Source: Minisyncoccota bacterium (GTDB lineage Bacteria; Patescibacteriota; Minisyncoccia; Phycocordibacterales; GWA1-40-21). From it: a DNA stretch of 64,000 nucleotides. The notes under the pieces are model-generated. The model searched no databases and had not been told where the DNA came from. It saw nothing but the letters and a program-made list of their open reading frames with translations. The stretch lies in contig JBBACS010000001.1 in NCBI GenBank assembly GCA_041656855.1, positions 3,454 to 67,453 of the forward strand. The letters are read 5' to 3'. The position numbers and the translations under genes are program-made. Positions within the stretch are counted from its first letter, which is position 1, and the number at the start of each line of letters is the position of its first letter. Of this stretch, positions 4,018 through 64,000 are shown in pieces.

Positions 4018-4157
4018 TTACCCGAGAAAATTTTTGTTGATGAAAATGTGTTGAGGTTATATGAGTAAGTAGTTTTTAAATAGATATACTCTTGTAAAAG
4101 AATACCTTCTATTTAACCCTCATTTTCAACACGTCAACAAAAACTTTAACGGGTGAA
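4018..4157 (-). repeat. family A palindromic element copy A2 (140 nt), minus orientation; 3' arm abuts PBP start codon
   Basis: Minus strand reads TTCACCCGTTAAAGTTTTTGTTGAC...CATCAACAAAAATTTTCTCGGGTAA-ATG; inner stem GTTGA/TCAAC differs from A1 but remains complementary. Confidence 0.85.
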
Positions 4158-16050: not shown

Positions 16051-16096
16051 ACGTCGCGCCTATAGGACGGTTGCGCGGCGTGACTCCGCAAAGTCA
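16051..16096 (+). repeat. GC-rich two-hairpin motif, family C copy C1
   Basis: ACGTCGCGCCTATAGGACGGTTGCGCGGCGTGACTCCGCAAAGTCA aligns with 24974-25021 and 33172-33217. Confidence 0.8.
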
Positions 16097-16126
16097 AAAA
16101 GCAGGCCTTAAATATGGCCTGCTTTT
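16097..16126 (+). terminator. intrinsic terminator
   Basis: AAAAGCAGGCC-TTAAATAT-GGCCTGCTTTT. Confidence 0.8.
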
Positions 16127-17250: not shown

Positions 17251-17721
17251 ATGAAAATAGTTAGCAAAAGCCTTTCTGATACACAAAAAATAGCCGAGGA
17301 TTTCATAGGTAAAATATCTATGGAGGTTTATAATAATGCACTTGTTGTTGGGCTTTATGGAGATTTAGGTTCTGGAAAAACTACTTTTACTCAAGCTGTG
17401 GCAAAAATTTTTAGTATTAAAGAAGATATAACAAGTCCGACTTTTGTTATTGAAAAAATATATGATATTTCTCACCCCAGTCAAATAAAAAGCCAATTTG
17501 ACGGGGCAAGCAAAGATTTCAAAAAACTTATTCATATAGATGCATATCGTTTGGATTCTGCAAAAGAACTTTCTGCGCTTGATTGGGATAAAACATTAGC
17601 TGATTCAAGAAATATTATTTTTATAGAATGGCCAGAAAGAGTATTAGAAGTATTGCCAGAAAATCATGCAAAAATAAATTTTAAATTTTTGAGCGAGAAT
17701 GAAAGAGAAATTGAAATATAA
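17251..17721 (+). CDS. tsaE: tRNA t6A37 biosynthesis ATPase TsaE
   Basis: Walker A GDLGSGKTTF, SPTFVIEKIY, HIDAYRL. Confidence 0.85.
   Translation: MKIVSKSLSDTQKIAEDFIGKISMEVYNNALVVGLYGDLGSGKTTFTQAVAKIFSIKEDITSPTFVIEKIYDISHPSQIKSQFDGASKDFKKLIHIDAYRLDSAKELSALDWDKTLADSRNIIFIEWPERVLEVLPENHAKINFKFLSENEREIEI
17474..17506 (+). repeat. 33-nt family B palindromic element inserted in frame in tsaE
   Basis: ACCCCAGTCAAATAAAAAGCCAATTTGACGGGG; 32/33 identical to 50546-50578 in argS; encodes PSQIKSQFDGA. Confidence 0.9.
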
Positions 17722-17745: not shown

Positions 17746-17789
17746 ACTACTAACCTCATCTACGCCATGGCGTAGATGAGGTTAGTAGT
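17746..17789. repeat. 44-bp perfect palindrome P1 (core CATCTACGCCATGGCGTAGATG)
   Basis: ACTACTAACCTCATCTACGCCATGGCGTAGATGAGGTTAGTAGT; likely also the tsaE terminator hairpin. Confidence 0.9.
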
Positions 17790-17804: not shown

Positions 17805-18185
17805 ATGAATAAATCAAGAAGATATAAAGGTGTTCCAATAAATTCTTTTGGTATTCCAATACTTAATCCAACTAAAGAAAAAATAAAAGATAAGATTGAT
17901 AGAAGAATTTATCACGATAGTTTTTCAATAAATTTAACTAATTCTTCACCAAAGAATCTTATTGTTATGTATGATATTCCCCATGCACAGAAAAAGGAGA
18001 GAGATTGGTTTCGTAGACATTTAAAAAAGTTTGGTTACATAATGATTCAAAAAAGTGTTTGGGTCGGACCATCCCCGCTACAAAAAGATTTTTTGGAATA
18101 TGTTAAATCCATTGGTTTACTTGGCCAATTAAAATCTTTTAAATTAGCAAAATCATACACAGGTAAAGAAAACTTATTTAAATAA
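17805..18185 (+). CDS. orphan Cas2-fold (Cas2 / PaaX C-terminal-like) protein with about 50-aa N-terminal extension
   Basis: Ferredoxin-like pattern LIVMYDIP-(helix KKERDWFRRHLKKFG)-YIMIQKSVWVG typical of Cas2/PaaX_C; no cas1 or CRISPR array in window. Confidence 0.55.
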   Translation: MNKSRRYKGVPINSFGIPILNPTKEKIKDKIDRRIYHDSFSINLTNSSPKNLIVMYDIPHAQKKERDWFRRHLKKFGYIMIQKSVWVGPSPLQKDFLEYVKSIGLLGQLKSFKLAKSYTGKENLFK

Positions 18186-18204: not shown

Positions 18205-18230
18205 TACATCTACGCCATGGCGTAGATGTA
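18205..18230. repeat. 26-bp perfect palindrome P2 (same 22-bp core)
   Basis: TACATCTACGCCATGGCGTAGATGTA followed by GGGTGTGTTGTTTTTT. Confidence 0.9.
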
Positions 18231-21258: not shown

Positions 21259-22356
21259 CTATTTTTGTGATTCCAAGAATTTAATCACAGCATCATTTAT
21301 TAGAACCATTTCAACATAAGCTTTCACTCTTTCTGGATCGGCACCTTTATATTGTTCTATAAGATGTTTAATTTCTTTTTCCATCTGTTCTTTGTTTGGT
21401 TCTATTTTTTCTTCCAAAGATATTTTTTGCAAGATAAGCTGAGTTTTAGCTCTCTTTTCTGCATCAGGGTGCCACTCCTTTCTCAAGTCCTCCCAAGTCT
21501 TTTTGATATGTTTTAAATATTCTTCTGGTTGAAGTCCCATTTGTGCTATATCAGCTTTAAATTGTCCCTCCATTTTATCAAGCTCACTTTCAATGACGAC
21601 TTTTGGCATTTCTATTTTTGTTTCTGTAACAAGTTTTTCTAGCATCTTGCCTCTCTTCAGATCTTTTGCGTGAATTTCTTTTTCTTTCCCAATATTTATT
21701 TTTAGTTTTGCTCTAAAATCTGCTACGTCTTTAAAATCACCAAGTTTTTTTACAAACTCATCATTAATTTCAGGAAGTTCTATTTCATCATGCTTACAGT
21801 CAGGTCCATGGGTGTGACTTGCCCCGTGAAGTTCTGAATTCTCAGAACTTTTTACGGGGTTTTGTTCCGCGTACATTTTTCTTATCTGTTCAATCGTTTC
21901 CTCAACTTGTTTTTCAGTAACTTCCTCTACTTTTTCTTCCACAGAATTTTCTTTTTTAGCAATTTTTTTATAGTCAGGAAGTTTTACTTCTGGCATTATT
22001 GTCACTTTGATTTTGAATTCAATAGGGGAGCCAAGTGCAATCTTACTTATTGCAATACCCGGTCTTCCAAGAAAATTTACTTTTGATTCTACAAGTATTT
22101 CTATAACACAATCATTGATAGCCATTTCCCCAGCATCTTCAAGGATTCCCATTTCTCCAAATTTTTCTTTTAAAGTAGCATCAGGAACATGTCCTTTTCT
22201 AAAACCAGGAAGTTCTGCGACCTCTTTTATTTTTTTGAAAGCTTTTATTTTATAATCTTCCAAAGCCTTAGTTGTTATCTCTGCTGTTATTTCCACTTCA
22301 CAATCAGGAAGTTTCTTTGTGTCTTTTATTTTATATATTTTATCTTCATTTTTCAT
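21259..22356 (-). CDS. tig: trigger factor, short form apparently lacking the PPIase domain
   Basis: N-terminal ribosome-binding domain with PGFRKGHVP; C-terminal arm domain; 365 aa, no FKBP-like segment seen. Confidence 0.85.
   Translation of the reverse strand: MKNEDKIYKIKDTKKLPDCEVEITAEITTKALEDYKIKAFKKIKEVAELPGFRKGHVPDATLKEKFGEMGILEDAGEMAINDCVIEILVESKVNFLGRPGIAISKIALGSPIEFKIKVTIMPEVKLPDYKKIAKKENSVEEKVEEVTEKQVEETIEQIRKMYAEQNPVKSSENSELHGASHTHGPDCKHDEIELPEINDEFVKKLGDFKDVADFRAKLKINIGKEKEIHAKDLKRGKMLEKLVTETKIEMPKVVIESELDKMEGQFKADIAQMGLQPEEYLKHIKKTWEDLRKEWHPDAEKRAKTQLILQKISLEEKIEPNKEQMEKEIKHLIEQYKGADPERVKAYVEMVLINDAVIKFLESQK
21822..21859. repeat. palindromic element inserted in frame in tig
   Basis: CCCCGTGAAGTTCTGAATTCTCAGAACTTTTTACGGGG; minus-strand translation NPVKSSENSELHGAS parallels NPSQMKSQFDGAS in argS. 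Confidence 0.8.
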
Positions 22357-23431: not shown

Positions 23432-24625
23432 TTATTTTGTTTCTCCGGTCTCTTCAGCTTCGACATATTCTCCCTCTACTGAAATTATATCTATTTTCCA
23501 TCCTGTAAGTTTTGCTGCAAGTCTCACATTTTGACCACCTTTTCCTATAGCCAGTGATTGCTGATCTACAGCTACTTCTACTTCCGCTTTTTTCTCTGTT
23601 TCATCTACTGTAACAGAAAGTATTCTGGCAGGAGAAAGTGCTTCCTCAATAAACTTTTTAGGATCTGCTGACCATTCTATAATATCTATTTTTTCTCCAC
23701 CGAGTTCAGACATTACTGTAGAAACTCTTACTCCTCTTTGTCCGACTAGTGAGCCAACTGGATCTATGTGTTCATCTTTTGAAGCAACCGCGATTTTTGA
23801 TCTTGAGCCAGCTTCTCTTGCGATAGATTTTATTTCTATTGTTCCCGCTCCGAGTTCAGGTGATTCTATTCTAAATAACTCTTCTAAAAATTTTGGATGA
23901 GACCTTGAAAGTCTTAAAAATATTCCTTTTGGAGTTTCTTCAACTCTGTAAAGATAGCCTCTGATTCTTTCTCCTGGTTTATATTTTTCTCCTGGAATTT
24001 GTTCTTCAAATGGAAGTATGGCTGTTGCTCTTCCCATATCTACAAAAAGATTTCCTCTCTCAAGTCTTTGTACAATACCTGTGACGATAGTTCCTTCTTT
24101 TTCTCCATATTCATTGAACACAGAAACTTTTTCTGCCTCTCTAATTTTTTGAACAATGACTTGTTTTGCTGTTTGTGCAGCGATTCTTCCATAGTCTGAC
24201 TTTTCTTCAAGAGGGAATACAAGTTCATCTCCAACTTTTGCATCTTTTTTAATTCTTTTTGCATCTTCAAGAAAAATATGATGTTCAGGATTGTAATAGA
24301 CAATTTTTTCTCCATTCTCGTTTACTTCTACTTTTTCTTCTTCTATTCTTCTTGATCTTTTGAATCTTTCTTCAGCTTCAGTGTCTTCTTTTTCTTCACG
24401 AACAACAACGCTGTCTTTGTCCACAACAGTTTTTACTTGGATGAATTCCATTTTACCAGAAGCTAAATCTACTTTTGCTTTAATTATTTGGCCTCTTTTT
24501 CCGTATTCTTTTTTGTAGGCGGTGGCAAGAGCCATTTCAATAGCCTCAAGCATTTTGGCTTTAGGTATTCCTCTTTCTTGTTCCATTTGTTCTACCACAG
24601 AGTTTATTACTTTTAGGTCTATCAT
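23432..24625 (-). CDS. nusA: transcription termination/antitermination factor NusA
   Basis: S1 domain (IVTGIVQRLERGNLFVDMG), two KH domains (VGQRGVRV, IGKGGQNVRLA). Confidence 0.9.
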   Translation of the reverse strand: MIDLKVINSVVEQMEQERGIPKAKMLEAIEMALATAYKKEYGKRGQIIKAKVDLASGKMEFIQVKTVVDKDSVVVREEKEDTEAEERFKRSRRIEEEKVEVNENGEKIVYYNPEHHIFLEDAKRIKKDAKVGDELVFPLEEKSDYGRIAAQTAKQVIVQKIREAEKVSVFNEYGEKEGTIVTGIVQRLERGNLFVDMGRATAILPFEEQIPGEKYKPGERIRGYLYRVEETPKGIFLRLSRSHPKFLEELFRIESPELGAGTIEIKSIAREAGSRSKIAVASKDEHIDPVGSLVGQRGVRVSTVMSELGGEKIDIIEWSADPKKFIEEALSPARILSVTVDETEKKAEVEVAVDQQSLAIGKGGQNVRLAAKLTGWKIDIISVEGEYVEAEETGETK

Positions 24626-24667
24626 GATGATTTTCTTAGCGAACGATAGTGAGGTTAGAAAATCATC

Positions 24668-24702
24668 ACCCCGTCAAATTGTATTTTCATTTGACTGGGG
24701 TG
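24668..24702 (-). repeat. family B palindromic element (short form)
   Basis: CACCCCGTCAAATTGTATTTTCATTTGACTGGGGTG on plus strand = family B motif in reverse orientation. Confidence 0.85.
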
Positions 24703-24742
24703 GCTCCATATTCTTACCACCGTTCAATTAATTAATAATGTG

Positions 24743-24800
24743 ACCCCAGTCAAATACTTGCTACGCAAGTTTTTCGCTATACGCGAAAATTTGACGGGGT
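24743..24800 (+). repeat. family B palindromic element (58 nt, with nested hairpins)
   Basis: ACCCCAGTCAAAT...ATTTGACGGGGT; loop carries ACTTGC-TAC-GCAAGT and TTTTCGC-TATAC-GCGAAAA. Confidence 0.85.
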
Positions 24801-24898
24801 TTAGAAAAATATAGTCGCTATACTCCTTATTTTTCTAAAAAAACGAGCCCGCCTTTCGGGCGAACTTCAATAAACACATATTATCAGTATTTAGTCTT

Positions 24899-28948: not shown

Positions 28949-29181
28949 TTCACCCGTTAAAGTTTTTACTAACGCATTATGCACGATACACCTGTTTTTA
29001 TAGTGTTTATTTTAATTTATATACCATTTTTATATATAAAACGAAACCGACTTATCGCATAATGCAAAAAAGTTATTTTTAGGTTAAAATATAGAGTAGT
29101 TATATGAATATGGTCTCTTCAAAAAATAGTATACAAAAAGTCGCCCATAACTTTTTTATTAGTAAAAATTTTCTCGGGTAA
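28949..29181 (+). repeat. family A palindromic element copy A3 (233 nt); 3' arm abuts pilB ATG
   Basis: TTCACCCGTTAAAGTTTTTACTAA ... TTAGTAAAAATTTTCTCGGGTAA-ATG; inner hairpin CGCATTATGC/GCATAATGCG-like. Confidence 0.85.
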
Positions 29182-30948
29182 ATGATATTAGAAAGCAAAC
29201 AGCTCAAAGATTTTTTAATAGATACAGGTCTTGTAACTAAGACCGAGTATGATGATATAGAAAATTTTATAAAAAAAGGCAAAAAAAAAGATTCTCCTGA
29301 AAAAGTTTTGGTAAGTCAAGGAAAAATTTCTGAAGATGATTTGCGCAGAGCACAAGCTTATGTGTTTGGTATACCTTTTGTAGATTTAAGAAATCAGAAA
29401 ATTGATTTTGCTGTTTTATCTCTAATTCCTGAACCTCTCGCTCGTAAAAACAATATAATTGCATTTAAGAAAAATGCCGATTCTCTTGAAGTTGCGATGC
29501 TAGATATTAATGATTTGCCGGCTATTGAATTTATAAAAAAGAAAGTTGGATTAAAAATTTTACCAAGGCTTACTGATTCAGTATCTATAAAAGGAGCTAT
29601 GCTTCAATATCAAAAAAGTTTGAAAGCAGAGTTTGGTGATTTGATACAAAAAGACGTCCAAGCTCTTAAAAATTCTGGCCATCTAGAAATAGGAATAAAA
29701 GATGAGACAATAGAGGAGTCATTGAAGAAAATGGCAGAAGACCTTCCAGTTGTTCGTATTGTGGAAACACTTCTTAAACATGCTGCATTACAAAATGCTT
29801 CTGATATTCACATAGAGGTTATGGAAAATGACGTACTCATTAGATATAGAATTGATGGAATCCTACATGATGCCATGGTTCTACCAAAAAATGCGGCAAC
29901 AAGCATTACCGCTAGAATAAAAGTTCTTTCAAATCTAAAGCTTGATGAAAAAAGATTGCCTCAAGATGGAAGATTCAAGATTGATATAAATGGAGAAAAG
30001 GTTTCATTTAGAGTTTCTGTCATTCCTACATATTTTGGGGAGAAAACCGTCATGAGATTGCTTCGAGAAAATGTTGGATCATATTCTTTGGAATCTATGG
30101 GTTTCCACGGGACAAATTTAGAAAGAATTCACGAGGCGATTAAAAAGGCAAATGGAATGATTCTCACAACTGGTCCTACGGGTTCTGGTAAAACAACAAC
30201 TCTTTATACAATTTTGGAATTATTAAATTCTGCTGATGTAAATATCGCCACCATTGAAGACCCTATTGAATATCAGGTAGCTAGAATAAATCAAACCCAA
30301 GTAAAGCCCGAAATTGGTTTCACTTTTGCAAATGGTCTGCGTTCTTTAGTCAGGCAGGATCCAGATATAATAATGGTAGGAGAAATTAGAGATAATGAAA
30401 CAGCATCTCTAGCGGTTAACGCAGCTCTTACAGGGCACATGGTGCTTTCAACTTTGCACACAAATTCTTCTGCGGGTGCTATTCCAAGACTTATGGATAT
30501 GAAAATAGAGCCGTTTCTTCTTGTTTCTACTATTAATATTATTTTGGCCCAGAGACTTATTAGAAAACTTACAAAAGAAAAAGAAAAATATCTTTTATCT
30601 AAAGCGGAATTATTATCCTTGGGGAGAATTGTAGATTTAAATAAAGTTTTAGAGACATTGAAAGCAGAAAATATAGTAGGAAAAGATGATACTTGGGAAA
30701 ATATTTATTTTTATAAAGCGAAAGAATCTATAGAATCAAAAGATGGTTATTCAAGCAGAATTGGTATTCACGAAATACTTAAGATGACCCCATCAATAAG
30801 AGACCTTGTCATGAAAGGCTCTACATCACAAGAGATAGAAGCACAGGCAAAAAAAGAAGGTATGCTGTCTATGATTGAAGATGGAATATTTAAATGTGTT
30901 ACAGGCATGACAACAATAGAAGAAGTGTTAAGGGTTGTTTCAGAATAA
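29182..30948 (+). CDS. pilB: type IV pilus assembly ATPase PilB/GspE family, paralogue 2
   Basis: T2SSE N-domain, Walker A GPTGSGKTT, DPDIIMVGEIRD, GHMVLSTLHTN; no tetracysteine motif. Confidence 0.9.
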   Translation: MILESKQLKDFLIDTGLVTKTEYDDIENFIKKGKKKDSPEKVLVSQGKISEDDLRRAQAYVFGIPFVDLRNQKIDFAVLSLIPEPLARKNNIIAFKKNADSLEVAMLDINDLPAIEFIKKKVGLKILPRLTDSVSIKGAMLQYQKSLKAEFGDLIQKDVQALKNSGHLEIGIKDETIEESLKKMAEDLPVVRIVETLLKHAALQNASDIHIEVMENDVLIRYRIDGILHDAMVLPKNAATSITARIKVLSNLKLDEKRLPQDGRFKIDINGEKVSFRVSVIPTYFGEKTVMRLLRENVGSYSLESMGFHGTNLERIHEAIKKANGMILTTGPTGSGKTTTLYTILELLNSADVNIATIEDPIEYQVARINQTQVKPEIGFTFANGLRSLVRQDPDIIMVGEIRDNETASLAVNAALTGHMVLSTLHTNSSAGAIPRLMDMKIEPFLLVSTINIILAQRLIRKLTKEKEKYLLSKAELLSLGRIVDLNKVLETLKAENIVGKDDTWENIYFYKAKESIESKDGYSSRIGIHEILKMTPSIRDLVMKGSTSQEIEAQAKKEGMLSMIEDGIFKCVTGMTTIEEVLRVVSE

Positions 30949-33171: not shown

Positions 33172-33217
33172 TCGTCGCGCTTAAATGACGGTTGCGCGAC
33201 GTGATTTCGCAAAATCA
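33172..33217 (+). repeat. family C two-hairpin motif, copy C3
   Basis: TCGTCGCGCTTAAATGACGGTTGCGCGACGTGATTTCGCAAAATCA; perfect 8-bp stem CGTCGCGC/GCGCGACG. Confidence 0.85.
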
Positions 33218-33223
33218 ACCTGT

Positions 33224-38835: not shown

Positions 38836-39648
38836 ATGGATATTAAATACATAGATATTCATTCTCATTTAGGTTTTGGTGATTATCAAAATGATTTTTC
38901 TGATGTTCTAAAAAGAATGGAAGACGCAGAAGTTGAAACTATCACTGTTGGTACAGATTTGGAAAGTTCAAAAGAAGCGATAAAAATTGCTGATGAAAAT
39001 GAAAATGTTTGGGCTTGTATCGGTTCTCACCCAGCTGATAAAAGAGATTTTATATTTGAAGAAAAAGATTTTGAAAGTCTAGTAAAAAATCCGAAAGTCG
39101 TAGCAATAGGTGAATGCGGTTTGGATTATTTTCATATTGAAAAAGAATTTGGAGACGGGGAAGTTTCTGAAAATAATATCAATAAAGAAAAAGAACGCCA
39201 AAAAAAAGAATTTATTAAACAGATTGAATTTTCAATAAAACACAATAAACCACTAATGTTGCATCTACGCCATGGCGTAGATGATGTTTTTGCTGATGCT
39301 TATAATATACTAAATAAATATAAAGGAAAAGTAAGAGCAAATATGCATTTTTTTGCAGGAAGCTTGGATTGGGCGAAAAAGTTCATAGAGCTAGGTTTTA
39401 ATATTTCTTTCACTGGTGTCATTACATTTGCAAGACAATATGATGAAATTATTAAAAATATTTCTTTAGATAAAATACAAGCAGAAACAGATTCTCCTTA
39501 TGTAGCGCCAATTCCTTATAGAGGAGAGAGAAATGAACCATCTTATGTTATAGAAGTTGTTAAAAAGATTGCAGAAATACGCGGGGAAAATTTTGAAACA
39601 GTACGAAAACAACTTTTACAAAATTCTAAAGACTTTTTTGGCGTTTAA
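38836..39648 (+). CDS. tatD: TatD family metal-dependent hydrolase
   Basis: DIHSHL, GECGLDY, MLHLRH, ETDSPY. Confidence 0.85.
   Translation: MDIKYIDIHSHLGFGDYQNDFSDVLKRMEDAEVETITVGTDLESSKEAIKIADENENVWACIGSHPADKRDFIFEEKDFESLVKNPKVVAIGECGLDYFHIEKEFGDGEVSENNINKEKERQKKEFIKQIEFSIKHNKPLMLHLRHGVDDVFADAYNILNKYKGKVRANMHFFAGSLDWAKKFIELGFNISFTGVITFARQYDEIIKNISLDKIQAETDSPYVAPIPYRGERNEPSYVIEVVKKIAEIRGENFETVRKQLLQNSKDFFGV
39262..39283. repeat. 22-bp perfect palindrome P3 inside tatD (same core as P1/P2)
   Basis: CATCTACGCCATGGCGTAGATG, encodes HLRHGVDD. Confidence 0.9.
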
Positions 39649-41468: not shown

Positions 41469-41567
41469 TTTTGTTTGTATTTTATGGTACTATATTTTAG
41501 TAGCCCCCTCGGGGGTTTTTAAATACAAATTTAATAAATTCACGAGCGAAGCGACTATAATTTATTA

Positions 41568-41621
41568 ATCCATCCCCACTTTTATTTTTAAATGTTTTTA
41601 AAAATAAAAGTGGGGATGGAT
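41568..41621 (+). promoter_or_regulatory. 54-nt perfect hairpin upstream of secE
   Basis: 23-nt arms ATCCATCCCCACTTTTATTTTTA / TAAAAATAAAAGTGGGGATGGAT, 8-nt loop; 3' arm overlaps ATG 41620. Confidence 0.7.
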
Positions 41622-49131: not shown

Positions 49132-50838
49132 GTGATTAAAAACATACTAGAAAATTCAATAAAGACCGCGCTTTGGTCTCTCAAGATAGATGAAAAGAAA
49201 GTTTCTAAGATAAATTTGGAACATCCAGAGGAACTATCTCATGGAGATTATTCTTGTAATATCGCGATGATTCTTGCAAAACAAGTTGCTCAAAATCCGC
49301 GAGAACTTGCAGAAAAGATTGTTGCAGAAATAAATGAAAGAAAACCAGAAGAGATTTCAAGAGTAGAAGTTGCCGGTCCCGGATTTATAAACTTTTATTT
49401 GTCTTCTGAATTTTTTGTTAATGAAAGTAAAGAAATACTTTGTGACTGTAATGATTTTGGTAGAAGCAAGATTGGAGAAGGAAAGAAGGTAGTTGTTGAA
49501 TATTCTTCTCCGAACATCGCAAAGCCATTTACTATTGGGCACTTGCGCTCAACTGTTATAGGCGATGCCATTGCAAACATTTTAGATTACTCAGGATATA
49601 AAGTAATCCGTGACAATCACTTGGGAGATTGGGGAACACAGTTTGGTAAGCTTATTGTAGCTATAAAAACTTGGTCATCACTTGATAAAATAAAAAAATC
49701 AAAACAACCTATAAAAGATTTGGTAGATTTGTATGTAAAATTTCATGATGAAGCAGAAAAAGATTTAGCTTTAGATAATGAGGCTCGAGATTGGTTTACA
49801 AAGCTTGAAAAAAATAATAAAGAAGCAAAAAATATATGGAATGTATGTGTAAAGCTTTCAATGAAAGAATTTGAAAAAATATATAAACGCCTTGGGGTAA
49901 AATTTGATACTGCATATGGTGAAAGTTACTTTGAAAAGAAAATGCAAGAGGTTTTGAAAGATATAAATAAACTAAATCTTGCAAAGGAGAGTGAAGGAGC
50001 ATACCTGGTATTTTTCAAAGATGATAAATATCCTCCGATGATGCTTTTGAAAAAAGATGGCTCAACAATATATGCTCTTCGTGATTTAGCTACGGATAAA
50101 TTTAGAAAGGAGAAGTATGGAAAAGATGTCGTAATCATAAATGAAGTTGGAATGGAACAGAGTTTGCACTTCGAACAGATTTTTGAGACGGAAAGATTGC
50201 TTGGATATTCAAATGGTGCAGACAGAATACATGTTAAACATGGTTTTTATCGTTTTCCAGAAGGTAAGATGAGTACGAGAAAGGGAAATGGTATCTGGCT
50301 AGATGAAGTTCTTGATGAAGCAGTCGTAAAAGCTGCAGCGTTTGATAAAAATACAGCAGAGGTAGTTGGAATCGGTGCAATAAAGTTTAACGATCTAAAA
50401 AGAGAAAGTTCAAAAGATATAATTTTTAATTGGGATGAGATATTAAACTTGAAAGGGGATTCAGGACCATATTTACAATATTCATATGCCCGTGCGAAAT
50501 CTATTTTGAGAAAAGCTAAAGAGGATGGTGTAAAAGCTAAAGTTAACCCCAGTCAAATGAAAAGCCAATTTGACGGGGCGAGTATTACAATACTCGAAAA
50601 ATTACTTTATAGATTTCCTGAGGTTGTGGAAAGGGCAGGAGCTGAATATTCACCACACTACATTGCAACTTATCTTATTGAGCTTGCCTCATCATTTAAT
50701 AATTTTTACGGACAAGGAAAGATTGTAGATAAAACAGATGCAAATTCCCCATACAAAGTTGCACTTACAGAAGCTTTCTCAATTGTTTTGAAAAATGGAC
50801 TTAATCTTTTGGGTATTTCCGCTCCAGAAAAAATGTGA
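49132..50838 (+). CDS. argS: arginyl-tRNA synthetase (GTG start)
   Basis: SSPNIAKPFTIGHLRS, MSTRKG, DALR anticodon-binding C-terminus. Confidence 0.9.
   Translation: MIKNILENSIKTALWSLKIDEKKVSKINLEHPEELSHGDYSCNIAMILAKQVAQNPRELAEKIVAEINERKPEEISRVEVAGPGFINFYLSSEFFVNESKEILCDCNDFGRSKIGEGKKVVVEYSSPNIAKPFTIGHLRSTVIGDAIANILDYSGYKVIRDNHLGDWGTQFGKLIVAIKTWSSLDKIKKSKQPIKDLVDLYVKFHDEAEKDLALDNEARDWFTKLEKNNKEAKNIWNVCVKLSMKEFEKIYKRLGVKFDTAYGESYFEKKMQEVLKDINKLNLAKESEGAYLVFFKDDKYPPMMLLKKDGSTIYALRDLATDKFRKEKYGKDVVIINEVGMEQSLHFEQIFETERLLGYSNGADRIHVKHGFYRFPEGKMSTRKGNGIWLDEVLDEAVVKAAAFDKNTAEVVGIGAIKFNDLKRESSKDIIFNWDEILNLKGDSGPYLQYSYARAKSILRKAKEDGVKAKVNPSQMKSQFDGASITILEKLLYRFPEVVERAGAEYSPHYIATYLIELASSFNNFYGQGKIVDKTDANSPYKVALTEAFSIVLKNGLNLLGISAPEKM
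50546..50578 (+). repeat. 33-nt family B palindromic element inserted in frame in argS
   Basis: ACCCCAGTCAAATGAAAAGCCAATTTGACGGGG; encodes PSQMKSQFDGA. Confidence 0.9.
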
Positions 50839-50997: not shown

Positions 50998-51033
50998 TTC
51001 CCTTTTTCCATTTAATTGATAACATATAATAAT

Positions 51034-54000
51034 ATGACTGAAAATAGTAAAGAAAAGCTTGTACTAAAAAATAAAGTTGCCGAAAGAGAAGAAGAAATAT
51101 TAAAATTTTGGCAAGAAAAAGAAATTTTCAAAAAAACTTTAGAAAAACCAGCTCCAAATGGTGAATTTGTATTTTATGATGGGCCTCCTTTTGCAACAGG
51201 GCTTCCACACTTTGGTCATATTTTGCCCGGAACAATGAAAGATTATATGGGTAGATATGAGACCATGAAAGGTAAGCATGTCTCTAGGAGATGGGGTTGG
51301 GATACACACGGTCTTCCTATAGAAAATATTGTTGAAAAAGAGATGGGTTTCAAATCTAAGAAAGACATTGAGGATTTTGGTCTTGAAGAATTTAATGATA
51401 TTGCAAGAAGCAAGGTTTTTACATATGTAGATGAATGGAAAAAAATAGTTCCAAGGCTTGGACGCTTTGTTGATATGGAAAATGATTACAGAACTCTAAA
51501 CCCATCTTATACAGAAACTGTTTGGTGGATTTTCAAGGAATTACATAAAAAAGGTTTAGTTTATGAAGGTTTTAAATCTATGCATCTTTGTCCTCATTGT
51601 GGAACAACCCTTTCCAATTTTGAAGTTGGACAAGGATATAAAGATATCACTGATATTTCTGTTACGGTCAAATTTGAGCTTGTAGATGAGCCAGGAACAT
51701 ATTTCCTTGCTTGGACCACAACACCATGGACACTTCCTGGAAACGTGGCTCTTGCAGTAAATCCAGATATTGATTATGTAAAAATAAAAGTAGGTAATAT
51801 TAAATTAATTTTAGCTGAATTAAGACTTTCAGTAATTAAAGAGCCTTATGATATTGTAGAAAAAGTAGAAGGTAATGCTTTGGTTGGTTTGTCATATAAA
51901 CCTATCTTTGATTATTATAATAATGATGATTTAAAGAATAAAGAGAACGGTTTTAAAGTTTATGACGCAGCTTTTGTAACAACAGAAGATGGTACGGGTA
52001 TAGTTCATATTGCCCCTGCATTTGGAGAAGATGATATGAATCTTGGCAAAGAAAAAAAGTTGCCATTTATACAACATGTAACAGTTGATGGAAGATTTAA
52101 AACCGAAGTCGAAGATTTTGCTGGTCAAAAAGTAAAGCCGATAGAAAATTCGCAACTTGCAGATATTGAAATAATAAAATATTTAGCTGGAAAAGGAACA
52201 CTTTATGCAAAAGAAAAATTTATACACTCATACCCACATTGTTATAGGTGTGACACTCCACTTTTAAACTACGCAGCAAGTTCCTGGTTTGTAGAAGTAA
52301 CAAAATTTAAGGATAAACTTGTAGAAGCAAATAAAAAAATAAAGTGGGTTCCAAAAGAAGTTGGAGAAGGGAGATTTGGTAAGTTGCTTGAAGGAGCTCC
52401 AGATTGGGCTATTTCAAGAAGCAGATTTTGGGGTGCACCTCTTCCAGTATGGAAATGTTCTTGTTGTCCAGTAAAAGAATTTATTGGTTCAATAGATGAA
52501 ATAAAAGAAAGAACAAAAAGCACAAATAAATTTTTGGTAGTTAGACATGGAGAAGCCAAAAGTAATGTATTGGATATTCTCAGTTCAAATCCAAAGACTG
52601 TGAATCATCTTACAGAAAAAGGAAGAGAACAAGCTGTGGAAGCTTCAAAAAATCTTAAAGATAAAGTGGATATTATTTACTGTTCTCCTTTTATGAGAAC
52701 AAAAGAAACTGCAGATATAATTGCTGAAAATATTGGATATCCTAAAGACAAAATTCTTTATGATGATAGACTTCATGAAATAAATGGAGGAGAAATGGAT
52801 GGAAGACCTGATCCGGAATATCAAGCATTTTTTACGAATAGGAAAGAAAAATTCTTTAGATCTCCAAAAGGCGGAGAAACATATACAGATGCAAAAAAGA
52901 GAATGACAGATTTTTTGTATGATATAGATAAAAAATATGAAGGAAAAAATATTTTGATTGTTTCCCATAATACTCCAATATGGCTAATGTTTTCAGGCGC
53001 ACTCGGGCTTAATAGAGAACAAACGCTTGCGACAAGAGTAGCTGGTACCCCTTTTATTCACAATTCGGAAATAAAAGAAATTCCTTTTGCACCAATTCCG
53101 CATAACAGAGAATATGAACTTGATATGCATAGACCTTTCATTGATGAAATTACTTTGAAATGTCCTTGTGGGGGAGATATGAAAAGAATTCCTGAAGTAT
53201 TTGATTGCTGGTTTGAGTCAGGTTCTATGCCTTACGCTCAAGTTCATTATCCTTTTGAAAATTTAGACAAATTTAATCCAGAAAAAGGAATTGGTTTTCC
53301 AGCAGATTTTATTGCAGAAGGGGTTGATCAGACAAGAGGCTGGTTTAATTCATTGTTAATTATTGGAATAGCACTATTTGATAAATCTCCATATAAAAGC
53401 GTTGCAACAAACGGCATACTTCTTGCTGAGGATGGACAAAAAATGTCAAAACATTTGAAGAATTATTCCGATCCTATGGGGGTTGTTGATATGTATAGTG
53501 CTGATGCAATGAGATATTATCTTTTATCTTCTTCAGCGACTAGAGCAGAAGACCTAAAATTTTCAAATAAGGGCGTTGATGAAGTTTTGAAGAAAATAAT
53601 TATGAGATTACAAAATGTTTATACATTCTTTGAAATGTATGGAGGTTTTGATTTAGATTTGACAAAAAAGGATGAATACAAAAAACCAAAAAATATTTTG
53701 GATAAATGGATTCTCGCAAGATTGAAAGAGACTGCAACTCAAATAACAAAAGCTACTGATGGGCATGAGTTTGATCGTGCAACTAGACCTATTGGAGACT
53801 TTGTTGATGACCTTTCCACATGGTATTTGAGAAGATCTCGCGATAGATTCAAGTCTGAAGATGTCCCCGATAGAAATTCTGCGATGTTCACTACGAGGAC
53901 TGTAATATTAGAGTTTTCAAAACTTTTGGCACCGGGAATGCCTTTCTTGGCTGAAGATTTATATTTAAAAATCACTGGAGGAATGGAAAAGGAGAGTGTA

Positions 54001-54540
54001 CATTTGGAAAATTGGACAGAAGAATTTGTTGGAGAACTTTCTGCTGAAGAAACTGAAGTTTTAGAAAAAATGAGAGAAACGAGAATCATAGTTTCTGTCG
54101 GACTTGAGGCTCGCGCAAAAGCAGGTATAAAAGTCAGACAGCCTCTTGCTAGCTTGAAAGTTAAAAGTGTGAAGCTTATGGGCAGTGAAGAATATTTGGA
54201 ACCCATTAAAGATGAAGTAAATGTTAAAGAAGTAATTTTTGAAGAAATGATTGCTGGAGATGTGGAACTCGATACTGTTCTTACAGAAAGATTGAAAGAT
54301 GAAGGTGCAAGCAGAGATATTATAAGGGCAATACAGGAAATGAGAAAAAATAAAAAACTAAATCCGTCTGATCAAGTTGAACTTTTTGTTGAAACGAGCG
54401 ATGATGGAAAAGAATTGATAAATAAGTTCTATAATGAAATTTCAAAAGTTGCTGGACTAAAATCGATATCTTTCAAAGAGTTTAAAGAAGGGGAAGTAGT
54501 TGAATTGGAAACTATGAAGTTTAAAATTCATATAAAATAA
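51034..54540 (+). CDS. ileS: isoleucyl-tRNA synthetase (type 2-like) with an embedded histidine-phosphatase domain (listed ORF starts at TTG 51016)
   Basis: PHFGH (HIGH), editing CP1 region, DMHRPFID, CWFESGSMPYA, KMSKH. Confidence 0.9.
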   Translation: MTENSKEKLVLKNKVAEREEEILKFWQEKEIFKKTLEKPAPNGEFVFYDGPPFATGLPHFGHILPGTMKDYMGRYETMKGKHVSRRWGWDTHGLPIENIVEKEMGFKSKKDIEDFGLEEFNDIARSKVFTYVDEWKKIVPRLGRFVDMENDYRTLNPSYTETVWWIFKELHKKGLVYEGFKSMHLCPHCGTTLSNFEVGQGYKDITDISVTVKFELVDEPGTYFLAWTTTPWTLPGNVALAVNPDIDYVKIKVGNIKLILAELRLSVIKEPYDIVEKVEGNALVGLSYKPIFDYYNNDDLKNKENGFKVYDAAFVTTEDGTGIVHIAPAFGEDDMNLGKEKKLPFIQHVTVDGRFKTEVEDFAGQKVKPIENSQLADIEIIKYLAGKGTLYAKEKFIHSYPHCYRCDTPLLNYAASSWFVEVTKFKDKLVEANKKIKWVPKEVGEGRFGKLLEGAPDWAISRSRFWGAPLPVWKCSCCPVKEFIGSIDEIKERTKSTNKFLVVRHGEAKSNVLDILSSNPKTVNHLTEKGREQAVEASKNLKDKVDIIYCSPFMRTKETADIIAENIGYPKDKILYDDRLHEINGGEMDGRPDPEYQAFFTNRKEKFFRSPKGGETYTDAKKRMTDFLYDIDKKYEGKNILIVSHNTPIWLMFSGALGLNREQTLATRVAGTPFIHNSEIKEIPFAPIPHNREYELDMHRPFIDEITLKCPCGGDMKRIPEVFDCWFESGSMPYAQVHYPFENLDKFNPEKGIGFPADFIAEGVDQTRGWFNSLLIIGIALFDKSPYKSVATNGILLAEDGQKMSKHLKNYSDPMGVVDMYSADAMRYYLLSSSATRAEDLKFSNKGVDEVLKKIIMRLQNVYTFFEMYGGFDLDLTKKDEYKKPKNILDKWILARLKETATQITKATDGHEFDRATRPIGDFVDDLSTWYLRRSRDRFKSEDVPDRNSAMFTTRTVILEFSKLLAPGMPFLAEDLYLKITGGMEKESVHLENWTEEFVGELSAEETEVLEKMRETRIIVSVGLEARAKAGIKVRQPLASLKVKSVKLMGSEEYLEPIKDEVNVKEVIFEEMIAGDVELDTVLTERLKDEGASRDIIRAIQEMRKNKKLNPSDQVELFVETSDDGKELINKFYNEISKVAGLKSISFKEFKEGEVVELETMKFKIHIK
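52531..53040 (+). other. inserted histidine phosphatase (PGAM-like, branch 1) domain within ileS
   Basis: Ordered motifs VVRHGEAKSN (RHG 52543-52551), CSPFMRTKETA, HEINGGEMDG, LIVSHNTPI (His 52966-52968). Confidence 0.75.
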
Positions 54541-63442: not shown

Positions 63443-63585
63443 CACCCAGTCAAATAAGGTTTGAGTGCTTTTTGAAAATTTGTGTTAATTGCTGATTTTA
63501 TGTTATTCATAATTTTGGTCTATTCTTCACCTGCTCAAACCTTAGAATTAATTTTTATTAAAAAATTAATTCTATTTGACGGGGT
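63443..63585 (+). repeat. family B palindromic element, long form (143 nt)
   Basis: CACCCAGTCAAAT ... ATTTGACGGGGT; nested stems AAGGTTTGAG/CTCAAACCTT and AGAATTAATTTTT/AAAAATTAATTCT; followed by the 46-nt module also seen at 24790-24835. Confidence 0.8.
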
Positions 63586-63617
63586 ATGTAAAAATATAGT
63601 CACTTTGTTCCTTATTT

Positions 63618-64000
63618 TTATATATAGTCTCCATCTTTATGCATTTCATCCACCTTTTCTTCTTCTTCAGATTTTTCTATATTTTCTCCATTTCCAATAA
63701 CTTCTCTTGCTTTTGCTCCGTCGCCTGGCCCTATAACCCCTCTCTGTTCTAACAAATCTATTAGCCTAGCTGCACGTGAGTATCCAACTCTAAGTTTTCT
63801 TTGTATATATGAAGTTGATGCTTTTCCTGCTTGTATAACTTCTGCTTTTGCTTGTTCATATAATTCATCTCCACCATCATCTTCTAAATCATTGAATATT
63901 CCAACTCCTCCACTTTCATCACTTCCACCTTTAGCTACTTCAGCTAGGTCTATCTCACCTCCAATGAGTTCATCTCTATATGCATCTGCTAGATATTTAA
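63618..64000 (-). CDS. ftsK: DNA translocase FtsK/SpoIIIE, C-terminal (gamma, winged-helix) part; 5' end outside window
   Basis: My minus-strand translation is open to the window edge: ...DELYEQAKAEVIQAGKASTSYIQRKLRVGYSRAARLIDLLEQRGVIGPGDGAKAREVI...DYI*; stop complement 63618-63620; absent from the ORF track (no Met in window). Confidence 0.8.
   Translation of the reverse strand, partial: KYLADAYRDELIGGEIDLAEVAKGGSDESGGVGIFNDLEDDGGDELYEQAKAEVIQAGKASTSYIQRKLRVGYSRAARLIDLLEQRGVIGPGDGAKAREVIGNGENIEKSEEEEKVDEMHKDGDYI

Follow-up and report, generated by a model that had tools for sequence, protein, structure and literature searches.

A hairpin inserted in frame into argS, probably a copy of a short dispersed palindromic repeat of Patescibacteria

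The argS gene of a Minisyncoccota bacterium contains an in-frame hairpin which we regard, with slightly better than even confidence, as a member of a dispersed family of short hairpin-forming repeats in Patescibacteria, comparable to REPs and to the in-frame palindromic elements of Rickettsia. The whole stretch of DNA analysed here (64,000 nt) is referred to as the window. The host gene and the copy within it are:

49132..50838, + strand: host gene argS, arginyl-tRNA synthetase, 568 aa (Pfam PF03485, PF00750, PF05746)
50547..50582, + strand: argS copy, 36-nt in-frame unit (covariance model 61.7 bits, E ~1e-11; unit length from the empty and filled tsaE sites)

The sequence ACCCCAGTCAAATGAAAAGCCAATTTGACGGGG lies at 50546-50578 on the + strand inside the ArgRS ORF, and sequence search confirmed the first-pass annotation, which had recognized an in-frame member of a repeat family at this place. 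The extent of 33 nt given there covers the hairpin (50547-50578) and the usual A preceding it at 50546, while the clean empty and filled sites of tsaE refine the inserted unit to 36 nt, including the CGAG that follows the hairpin. The arms CCCC-A-GTCAAAT and ATTTGAC-GGGG enclose the loop GAAAAGCCA. The 12 codons of the unit read PSQMKSQFDGAS, and the protein continues through the copy as ...KAKVN-PSQMKSQFDGA-SITILEKLLYRFPEVV. Folded as RNA, the hairpin has a 9-nt loop on an 11-bp stem from which a single A bulges out; its energy is -14.3 kcal/mol, with z = -3.4 relative to shuffled sequences. This agrees with the earlier statement that a hairpin resides in an essential mRNA.

In the protein the insert comprises residues 473-484, behind the catalytic core and ahead of the DALR anticodon-binding domain. 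The location in a variable linker in front of this domain, already proposed in the first-pass annotation, is supported by both the comparison of orthologues and an AlphaFold2 model. The model has a mean pLDDT of 89.4, and its only stretch below 50 (residues 477-482) falls within the insert, which is predicted to add a disordered (floppy) loop of 12 residues.

The presence/absence test suggested in the first-pass annotation is positive among the orthologues: the insert is missing from most close ArgRS and TsaE proteins and present, at precisely the corresponding position, in a minority. Empty TsaE proteins (144 aa) read ...YDIxH directly followed by KNFKKL..., and filled ones (156 aa) have exactly PSQIKSQFDGAS in addition at this point. 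At the DNA level 36 nt are added within the His codon (CA^Y), with no direct repeat. The ArgRS insert is present in three of the 60 closest proteins and in one of 78 metagenome relatives, always at the identical site, and no family copies were found in 79 related ArgRS loci, which together span 335 kb. Judged from these alignments, the argS element evidently entered the inter-domain linker as an insertion. In other lineages the ArgRS linker and the TsaE loop hold unrelated hairpin inserts; these, together with the patchy distribution and the likeness of loops within a genome, resemble the behaviour of a mobile repeat. The idea that empty ArgRS linkers are decayed relics of the element (KKIDGEVMT versus QFDGASIT) was rejected, as local DNA alignments were not significant against shuffles (p = 0.3-0.4 for L087 and L090). 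Also rejected was a recombination tract, or a wider zone of conservation, about the argS insert: insert-bearing alleles resemble one another only a little more than others do, in each of the three regions tested and not specifically in the flanks.

The same-site argS copy occurs in at least nine lineages (the window, L085, L086, L088, L077, L015, L018, L030 and L011), the flanking synonymous sites of which have diverged, with only 61% of the codons for identical residues matching. The insertion is therefore old. The argS and tsaE copies do differ by a single base, G versus A at the first loop position, as reported before. However, the first-pass annotation took this as a sign of recent spread or gene conversion, which does not hold: the arms are invariant family-wide in many genomes, and the near-identity therefore reflects a constraint on the hairpin throughout the family. 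Copying within genomes receives partial support, since loops differ at 1.88 positions within a genome versus 2.74 between genomes (permutation p < 0.0005), but recency does not. The argS copy is best read as tolerated and old, not recent, and its hairpin is probably a tolerated passenger.

In total the window holds five family copies, three short ones and two long forms sharing the arms, where none are expected; for the short copies dinucleotide shuffles of the window give an expectation of 0.00. Besides the argS copy these are, together with one related element:

17475..17510, + strand: tsaE copy, 36-nt unit in the argS frame, encoding PSQIKSQFDGAS (sequence match at 17474-17506; empty and filled sites of orthologues)
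24669..24701, - strand: short intergenic copy, sense, upstream of nusA, two mismatches (sequence match, fold)
24744..24799, + strand: long form, in which the family arms close a perfect three-way junction with two small unrelated hairpins (fold -34.5 kcal/mol, z = -7.1)
63445..63584, + strand: long form with a 118-nt interior of two hairpins on the family closing stem (repeat family D15, fold)
21818..21860, - strand: related in-frame element in tig (trigger factor), with termini ACCCC...GGGGCAAG and a different internal hairpin, encoding NPVKSSENSELHGAS

The tsaE copy has the loop AAAAAGCCA, one base off that of argS, and is followed by CAAG. The short copy upstream of nusA abuts a second hairpin (24625-24668, - strand), which ends with the A of the nusA start codon (ATG); this double arrangement is also found upstream of nusA in L044, L001 and L010. 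Directly after the long form at 24744-24799 there is a hairpin with the loop TATAGTCGCT (24800-24839), and the same conserved hairpin follows the other long form at 63585-63624. This latter long form, whose 5' arm is short by one C, has the end of ftsK on one side and a small gene on the other, and both of these genes are on the - strand. Other copies of the interior hairpins of the long forms are absent from the window, and the idea that they represent another repeat family was abandoned. The pattern ACCCC-N18-48-GGGGCRAG matches three times in the window against 0.00 expected, and there are hints of several sister families. Every arm 11-mer in the window belongs to a paired hairpin and no lone arms exist; on this ground a role as DNA-uptake sequence was discarded.

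Outside the window about 85 copies with exact arms (CCCCAGTCAAAT/ATTTGACGGGG) were found in Patescibacteria MAGs, up to 15 per draft MAG, and identical arms also occur in at least one Desulfovermiculus genome. The unit of 36 nt consists of CCCC-A-GTCAAAT, an A-rich 9-nt loop, ATTTGAC-GGGG and CRAG, i.e. a stem of 12 + 11 nt with a bulged A. It is preceded by a conserved A, and its 3' flank is CRAG, TAAA or TGAT. The 9-nt spacer is fixed in about 70 copies. In variants the arms are 10-118 nt apart with the intervening sequence folded into hairpins, and an extended form in L042 and L073 ends in a GAAA tetraloop. At the orthologous site between nusA and the adjacent gene the stem base is kept while the apex changes from the 9-nt loop to two hairpins.

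Of about 95 copies, 45 are inside long ORFs and about half are intergenic. The genic copies reside in some 20 housekeeping genes, nearly always in the same frame (xPSQIKSQFDGA), and the element peptide in this frame is found in about 40 proteins. The hosts include GatA, RsmE, RecJ, AsnB, Pol I, SpoU, RNase H and ComEC, as well as HtpX, a Xer-type recombinase, RNase R, Alr, SecA, a Mur ligase and RF2, and the insert often falls between Pfam domains. Within genes 42 copies are in sense and three in antisense orientation; in co-directional intergenic regions the ratio is 18:9. Of the three sense frames only one is free of stop codons, encoding the hydrophilic peptide PSQ-I/M-KSQFDGAS, and the other two contain TGA or TAA, while the antisense strand has two open frames, both for hydrophobic peptides. 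The constant frame and the sense bias would be explained by this property of the frames combined with the requirement for a surface loop that tolerates the insert. Copies with a different loop length use other reading frames (L073, L026, L031). The intergenic copies in Patescibacteria lie between divergent genes in 15 cases and between convergent genes in none, and many of them end 39-43 nt before a start codon. In the class of copies adjacent to a start codon, a TATAGT/TATAAT-like hexamer follows 13 nt after the element. A role of the TTGAC in the 3' arm as -35 box was rejected, because the constant 13-nt spacing to TATAGT is too short for a sigma-70-type promoter.

What is conserved in these copies is evidently the nucleic-acid hairpin and not the peptide. 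In the ArgRS copies 222 of 222 pairs of arm codons match, compared with the 61% of other codons for the same residue, and in TsaE 27 of 27 match against a background of 60-67%. The arm codons are rare here (CCC 4% of Pro, GGG 10% of Gly, GAC 16% of Asp). Loop changes in the ArgRS and TsaE copies are non-synonymous, and the residues K, S and Q vary freely. In diverged copies compensatory double changes affect five of the 11 stem pairs, versus 0.3 in shuffles. Only two one-sided stem changes keep the pairing; both are U.G wobbles when read in sense and would be A.C mismatches on the opposite strand. It is the combination of fixed synonymous arm bases, amino-acid-changing loops and compensatory arm changes that points to the hairpin. 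Estimates of conservation are biased by the fact that most copies come from the exact-arm search, the unbiased set being small (L085, L086, L088, L011, L168, L169 and L170).

If the hairpin is a mobile repeat, it would be copied within genomes and kept intact by way of a factor that recognizes the folded single strand. Most probably this factor would be a DNA-hairpin-specific enzyme of the kind that moves REPs and IS200/IS605-type elements without target duplication. Against this reading, no transposase or RAYT-like gene recurred when about 565 ORFs located up to 1.5 kb from the copies were compared all-against-all by BLASTP; every recurrence found reflects an orthologous neighbourhood, namely argS-ileS, nusA or a pilin/GspF cluster that includes a small GIY-YIG protein. 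Furthermore, a purely selfish element gives no reason for perfect arms in old fixed copies. Perfect arms in the orthologous ArgRS and TsaE copies call for selection or repeated homogenisation, and a host function is therefore possible. The preference for 5' regions, with the excess of divergent over convergent locations and the start-codon spacing described above, is unexpected for junk DNA, and the long forms, which keep the three-way junction despite unrelated interiors, look like the outcome of selection on structure. In a tree of the short C-terminal DNA the insert-bearing ArgRS alleles are polyphyletic, which requires recombination, repeated loss or strongly site-specific insertion. The bias of the exact-arm search likewise weakens the case for a mobile repeat.

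The most serious alternative is possible but clearly less probable than the mobile repeat: the hairpin could be a functional RNA signal whose bulged-A stem is read in 5' leaders and coding regions by a specific RNA-binding protein or ribonuclease. It would control stability, processing or translation, e.g. by ribosome pausing at inter-domain linkers, and the argS copy would be kept for this purpose. The arms conserved at synonymous sites in orthologous coding copies, the compensatory changes, the two sense-strand wobbles, the stem base retained beside nusA, the GAAA tetraloop of L042 and L073 and the location in 5' regions with a constant spacing to the ATG all speak for it. The strong sense bias in genes does so too, but is explicable by tolerance of the peptide alone, and the co-directional intergenic bias is modest. 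Two wobbles are too few to tell which strand matters. Most close relatives lack the element, which would be odd for a general signal on essential genes. Moreover, a scan of the window against Rfam at gathering thresholds gave no match, and around the argS copy and those upstream of nusA even a permissive limit of E up to 5 brought no meaningful hit; with ARAGORN no tRNA or tmRNA was found.

A further reading, to which we give slightly less credit still, is that the family hairpin is a tag selected for its structure and kept by certain Patescibacteria in dozens of housekeeping genes, in 5' leaders as well as in coding regions, and read by a putative factor either as RNA or as single-stranded DNA. 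If so, essential genes such as argS and tsaE would be constrained to keep the hairpin, and the copies would form a dispersed hairpin regulon or a chromosome-marking system.

It is unlikely that a dimeric regulator or a nucleoid protein binds the palindrome as double-stranded DNA (half-sites of 12 and 11 bp, spacer of 9 bp), with the coding copies being sites that chance to fall in genes. The fixed and A-rich spacer would suit such a site, and if the hexamer 13 nt downstream is a -10 box, the centre of the palindrome would be positioned at about -41.5. However, compensatory changes in both arms indicate base pairing and not protein read-out of a fixed sequence, and the functional-looking variants with 10-118 nt folded between the arms are incompatible with a fixed spacing of half-sites. 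A symmetric dimer would not be expected to go with the conserved one-base asymmetry (the bulged A), and copies arise as whole 36-nt insertions.

That the peptide PSQIKSQFDGAS is a selected short motif grafted into many proteins, the hairpin being incidental, we consider very improbable. The identical peptide and frame in about 40 proteins would fit, but the codon analysis already largely refutes this explanation: synonymous positions of the arms are invariant and use rare codons, and the loop residues are the ones that vary. About half of the copies are intergenic, the insert is a low-confidence loop in the AlphaFold2 model, and other frames are used when the loop length is altered. A chance match or an assembly artefact is practically negligible, given the expectation of 0.00 in shuffles and the presence of the same argS-site element in independent assemblies from several sources. 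A phage origin was dropped because there were no matches among IMG/VR viral contigs.

Bacteria of the Candidate Phyla Radiation have tiny, streamlined genomes which are usually thought to be poor in repetitive DNA, and their gene regulation is almost unknown. A description of such elements in Patescibacteria was not found in a full-text literature search. The family places 36-nt hairpin repeats in frame in essential genes, among them those for aminoacyl-tRNA synthetases, TsaE, SecA, Pol I and RF2. Odd short insertions and "variable linkers" in annotated host proteins are thereby explained, and the repeat can serve to trace lineages and to mark recombination. It is also a compact natural case of a coding sequence under a nucleic-acid-structure constraint. 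If a host factor reads the hairpin, it would be a new cis-signal in these bacteria; if it is selfish DNA, it would be among the smallest in-frame mobile repeats described, and the mobilising enzyme would be worth finding.

The copies do not resemble intrinsic terminators, GC-rich hairpins at the 3' ends of genes with a U-tract directly behind them: the argS and tsaE copies, both within ORFs, are followed by CGAG and CAAG, and the intergenic placement (divergent versus convergent 15 to 0) disfavours this reading too. With attC sites the family shares a conserved stem base with an extrahelical base that closes a variable apex, ranging from a small loop to branched hairpins, and, as proposed here, the folded single strand would be the recognized form in both. 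The attC core sites are RYYYAAC and GTTRRRY, and cassettes form arrays beside an integrase gene (intI), whereas the family has no such core sites and its copies are single and scattered.

MITEs measure 50-500 bp, and classical MITEs require a target duplication. The family resembles them in its terminal inverted repeats or hairpin, its non-autonomy and its filled versus empty sites, but it is far smaller and lacks a target-site duplication in tsaE. Derivatives of IS200/IS605 agree with it in the absence of target-site duplication; these elements require insertion 3' of a fixed target of 4-5 nt and the presence of a TnpA (Y1) gene, while here only the preceding A is common and a parent IS was not found near the copies.

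REPs are extragenic by definition, have a conserved 5' GTAG and reach hundreds of copies per genome, and the RAYT gene is usually flanked by REPs. As imperfect palindromes of 20-40 nt in many copies they are close to the family, with its imperfect palindromes of about 35 nt, many copies and no target duplication, and inverted pairs and mosaics with small hairpins are common to both, as upstream of nusA at 24625-24839. In contrast, about half of the family copies are inside genes, a GTAG-type tetranucleotide at the 5' foot is replaced by a single conserved A, with CRAG on the 3' side, and copy numbers are in the tens per genome. No RAYT gene recurs among the approximately 565 ORFs near the copies.

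The Rickettsia palindromic elements (RPE; Ogata et al. 2000, as presented in PMC3184786) are palindromes of ~105-146 bp. Like them, the family consists of dispersed palindromes found both intergenically and, in frame, in many unrelated housekeeping genes of a small-genome bacterium, where they add a short peptide at positions tolerated by the protein. By the RPE length given in PMC3184786 the two are set apart (36 nt versus ~105-146 bp), as they are by the phylum of the host; similarity of sequence to RPEs was not apparent, and the arms of the family are demonstrably conserved at synonymous sites, with compensatory changes.

The 33-nt string of the argS copy of family B, a short in-frame hairpin repeat, lies inside the ORF 49132..50838, which encodes an arginyl-tRNA synthetase (ArgRS; 568 aa; Pfam Arg_tRNA_synt_N, tRNA-synt_1d and DALR_1) whose nearest relatives belong to Candidatus Paceibacterota and Taylorbacteria MAGs. 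It translates as N-PSQMKSQFDGA-S and folds as RNA into an 11-bp stem (CCCC-A-GUCAAAU / AUUUGAC-GGGG) that has a single bulged A and closes a 9-nt loop (-14.3 kcal/mol; z = -3.4 against shuffles). Allowing up to three mismatches, three short copies are found in the window where shuffles predict 0.00, and two long forms, which have a bigger interior, are built on the same pair of arms:

50546-50578, + strand: family B copy in argS, 33-nt string
50547-50582, + strand: 36-nt family B unit in argS, its extent taken from the comparison of tsaE alleles with and without the unit
17474, + strand: family B copy in the TsaE gene, one mismatch to the argS string
24669, - strand: short family B copy, two mismatches to the argS string
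24744-24799: family B long form
63445-63584: family B long form

What the first-pass annotation had stated as fact about this hairpin is correct throughout.

The extent of the unit is given by tsaE. About 100 of the 120 closest TsaE proteins have 144 aa and read ...IEKIYDIxH-KNFKKL..., and the window protein (156 aa) together with six others reads ...YDIxH-PSQIKSQFDGAS-KNFKKL..., with an insert of 12 residues. Compared as DNA, filled alleles are longer than empty ones by exactly 36 bases (CCCCAGTCAAAT-N9-ATTTGACGGGGCAAG), placed within the His codon (CA^Y), and no direct repeat is seen where the insert joins the gene. This makes the mobile unit a 32-nt hairpin plus CRAG, equal to 12 codons, inserted without target duplication. 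Two of the three sense frames contain stops (ATT TGA C in the 3' arm; AAA TAA or AAA TGA at the stem-loop junction), which is why the frame is constant: only the PSQ...FDG frame is open. On the antisense strand two frames are open, encoding the hydrophobic peptides PRQIGFLFDWG and PVKLAFYLTG.

Comparing the nine insert-bearing ArgRS genes reveals that codons for the same residue match in 61% of pairwise comparisons across the C-terminal region, while for the seven arm codons that are degenerate (CCC, AGT, CAA, CAA, TTT, GAC, GGG) all 222 of 222 pairs agree. In the window genome CCC, GGG and GAC are rare, making up 4%, 10% and 16% of the codons for their amino acids. The arm codons of TsaE behave likewise (27/27, versus 60-67% elsewhere). 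Changes in the ArgRS and TsaE inserts are confined to the loop and alter the peptide (KSQ to KNQ, KNA, KIQ or ESQ). The ArgRS estimate is biased, as five of the nine copies were obtained by exact DNA match, but the four copies from other genomes that were identified without recourse to the arms (loci L085, L086 and L088 by protein-based searches, and L011) agree with it. L011 has one arm change, GGG to TGG, which puts it out of reach of the exact-arm scan at that position; the change pairs the usually bulged A. A covariance model built from 44 copies picked up diverged copies among the fetched loci, with compensatory changes (TCCC/GGGA; GTGAAAT/ATTTCAC in three loci; GTTAAAT/ATTTAAC; several combined in L034). 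In an alignment of 22 sequences, assembled to include diverged copies so that its counts are illustrative and give no unbiased rate, double changes occur at five of eleven stem pairs (0.3 in shuffles), 99.2% of cells are paired, and the two one-sided changes that retain pairing are both U.G on the sense strand. What is maintained is the paired stem and largely its sequence, not the peptide; the constraint acts at the nucleotide level.

Among argS orthologues the insert is found in few: three of the 60 closest proteins (P0001, which is the window protein, P0002 and P0007) and, for the C-terminal domain, one of 78 metagenome relatives (L088). Its position is identical in the window, L085, L086, L088, L077, L015, L018, L030 and L011. 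In a tree built on 231 nt of the C-terminal domain, insert-bearing alleles are scattered among those that lack it, which requires repeated loss, recombination or site-specific gain. The argS genes of L011, L015, L018 and L030 share 75-90% nucleotide identity with the window gene in the N- and C-terminal (DALR) domains and about 45% in the catalytic core. Such an identity profile implies domain-level recombination between divergent argS lineages, and these mosaic genes indicate that ArgRS recombination does occur. The first-pass annotation had taken the likeness of the argS and tsaE copies as a sign of recent spread or gene conversion; recent spread does not follow, as the likeness reflects a constraint on the whole family and the insertion in argS is an old one.

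An AlphaFold2 model of the window ArgRS with 50 aligned homologues (mean pLDDT 89.4, pTM 0.90) places the insert (residues 473-484) in a loop between helices 445-465 and 487-492; pLDDT falls below 50 at residues 477-482 alone, within the insert. The prediction fits a tolerated, flexible surface loop, and the loop is a permissive one. In other Patescibacteria lineages the same linker carries unrelated hairpin-forming inserts: AAGGTCGGACCTT...AAGGTCCGACCTT in L114, L124, L148 and L110 (peptide 'RSDLK.SKRSDL'), AAAGCCAGGCTTT... in L128, two hairpins in L165 and a tandem pair in L103. The TsaE loop likewise hosts several other inserts, with unrelated hairpin-forming or repeated ones in the related proteins P0126, P0135, P0136, P0145, P0149, P0193, P0201 and P0217; peptides of the 'TWTSDVQV' type are an example from these two sites. 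ArgRS linker and TsaE loop are recurrent landing sites, and these Patescibacteria genomes seem generally prone to in-frame inserts that form hairpins.

The family is more general than could be seen from the window sequence alone. A single scan of 185,579 species-representative genomes for exact arms with a 9-39 nt interior yielded 84 loci, nearly all from Patescibacteria MAGs, with up to 15 copies per MAG; they are labelled, among others, as Paceibacterota, Taylorbacteria, Moranbacteria, Doudnabacteria and Saccharibacteria, and some of these labels may be generic placeholders. About 70 copies have a 9-nt loop (consensus RAAAARYCA), and nearly all are preceded by an A. Three contexts can be told apart by the 3' flank. 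Copies followed by CRAG or CAGG lie within long ORFs, on the sense strand and in one common frame. The second class (TGATGATTTTTA-TAGTCGCTnCGCTCAT-TAAAAATCAATCA-TG) has a second hairpin directly 3' of the element, with a stem that covaries among loci, a TATAGT/TATAAT-like hexamer in the loop and a final base that is the A of the start codon of varied genes (nusA, serS-like, fpg, recO, ftsE, yebC). In the third, TAAA is followed by a Shine-Dalgarno-like sequence. Pfam-confirmed host proteins are GatA, RsmE, RecJ (two different sites), AsnB, DNA polymerase I, SpoU methylase, a DNA-alkylation repair protein, RNase H, ComEC, HtpX, a HI0933-like flavoprotein, a Xer-type recombinase, RNase R, alanine racemase, SecA, Mur ligase and RF2, and the insert often lies between Pfam domains (e.g. 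Pol I, SpoU, Mur ligase, ArgRS). By a simple ORF-based gene map, 42 copies in genes are sense and 3 antisense, against 18 and 9 in co-directional intergenic regions; 15 lie between divergent genes and, in Patescibacteria, none between convergent ones. A deltaproteobacterial Desulfovermiculus sp. MAG has three intergenic copies (L051, L063, L066; one between nadC-like and nadB-like genes) with arms identical to family B, a bulged A or G, a CAAG or TAAA tail and a 20-nt interior. The family, or its recogniser, may reach beyond Patescibacteria.

Eleven distinct long forms have a common closing stem and two stacked hairpins of unrelated sequence in a perfect three-way junction; in intermediate forms a single small hairpin lengthens the stem. 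The interiors of the long form at 24744 have no second occurrence within the window. Between nusA and the neighbouring gene, the intergenic copy facing away from nusA follows this pattern, retaining the stem base and differing in its apex among genomes: the window has two hairpins there, L044 a 9-nt loop, and L001 an interior of 42 nt together with GTGAAAT arms. Long or intermediate forms also occur in-frame within ORFs, using other frames (L026, L031, L073). Two further kinds of hairpin were noted:

24625-24668, - strand: second module, a hairpin with variable, covarying stem and conserved loop TATAGTCGCT(N)CGCTC
24800-24839, + strand: second module
63585-63624, + strand: second module
41540-41575, - strand: second module, preceded by a different hairpin, no gene downstream
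21818-21860, - strand: in-frame hairpin of 42 nt in tig (trigger factor), with family B termini ACCCC...GGGGCAAG

The second module is also present at many start-codon-proximal ('class-b') loci; it usually lies directly 3' of the family B hairpin, and in many loci its 3' end adjoins the ATG of the gene that follows. Yet another conserved module, ...CTTTGCGAACAWAGTGAAGCAATCCAGGTAA, stands 5' of several start-proximal copies (L019, L021, L035, L041, L049), so that these leaders combine several small hairpins into mosaics; the mini-hairpin motifs GCGAAGC/GCTTCGC are repeated both there and in long-form interiors. The inner stem of the tig hairpin (AGTTCTGA/TCAGAACT) differs from that of family B, and the common termini suggest that both may form a superfamily.

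Other features of the window are the isoleucyl-tRNA synthetase gene, further repeats and two ORFs:

51016-54540, + strand: isoleucyl-tRNA synthetase with a histidine-phosphatase domain (His_Phos_1, residues 507-674) inserted centrally within the class I catalytic domain; the L015, L018 and L030 genes group with it by BLASTP
17757-17778, 18207-18228, 39262-39283: second palindromic repeat family CATCTACGCCATGGCGTAGATG, probably the 'family A' of the first-pass annotation
17805-18185: small ORF between two CATCTACGCCATGGCGTAGATG copies, matching Cas2/PaaX_M fold families
16052-16097, 33173-33218: intergenic short repeat CGTCGCGC...GCGCGACG
630-664, 4013-4047, 29150-29192: intergenic short repeat AAAATTTTCTCGGGTAAATG
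6653-10882, - strand: 1409-aa ORF made up largely of diverged tandem repeats, about 10 in number and each roughly 150 nt long (families D1-D3)

The distribution of family B is patchy, with genome-specific loop variants. Run over 335 kb of sequence from 79 related ArgRS loci, the covariance model found no copy, compared with five in the 64-kb window, and the insert-bearing loci L086, L011 and L030 have a second copy a few kb away. Loops differ by a mean of 1.88 within and 2.74 between MAGs (permutation p below 0.0005). Neither viral contigs with the element nor a recurrent transposase-like neighbour of its copies were found.

Family B exists as a repeat family, and a REP/RPE-like dispersed palindromic repeat is the best-supported reading; it would be copied as a folded single strand by a putative enzyme, and the argS copy would be a passenger. 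To the main alternative, a hairpin that functions as an RNA signal, we give a modest but real probability: old copies are conserved in situ, 5' regions are preferred at a fixed distance to start codons, the stem is kept beneath a variable apex, and two wobbles are on the sense strand. A double-stranded DNA operator is unlikely in view of the covariation of the arms and the existence of long forms. A function of the inserted peptide is contradicted by the codon data, and chance or artefact as the source of the match is excluded. We consider the finding of moderate to high interest, since these streamlined genomes keep one specific hairpin within coding sequences that are essential.

No Rfam family was matched, and no description of such elements in Patescibacteria was found in the literature. 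Family B is without the target duplication typical of MITEs and without the core sites and arrays of attC. REPs are extragenic, have a GTAG foot and are accompanied by a RAYT gene. Family B lacks the first two of these defining features, and no RAYT-like gene recurs among the neighbours of its copies. REPs are nevertheless near in behaviour, being small imperfect palindromes in mosaics with other hairpins. The 36-nt unit also falls short of the 105-146 bp which define Rickettsia palindromic elements (PMC3184786). Together with the REPs, these elements are the nearest in behaviour, as they too insert in-frame into many genes.
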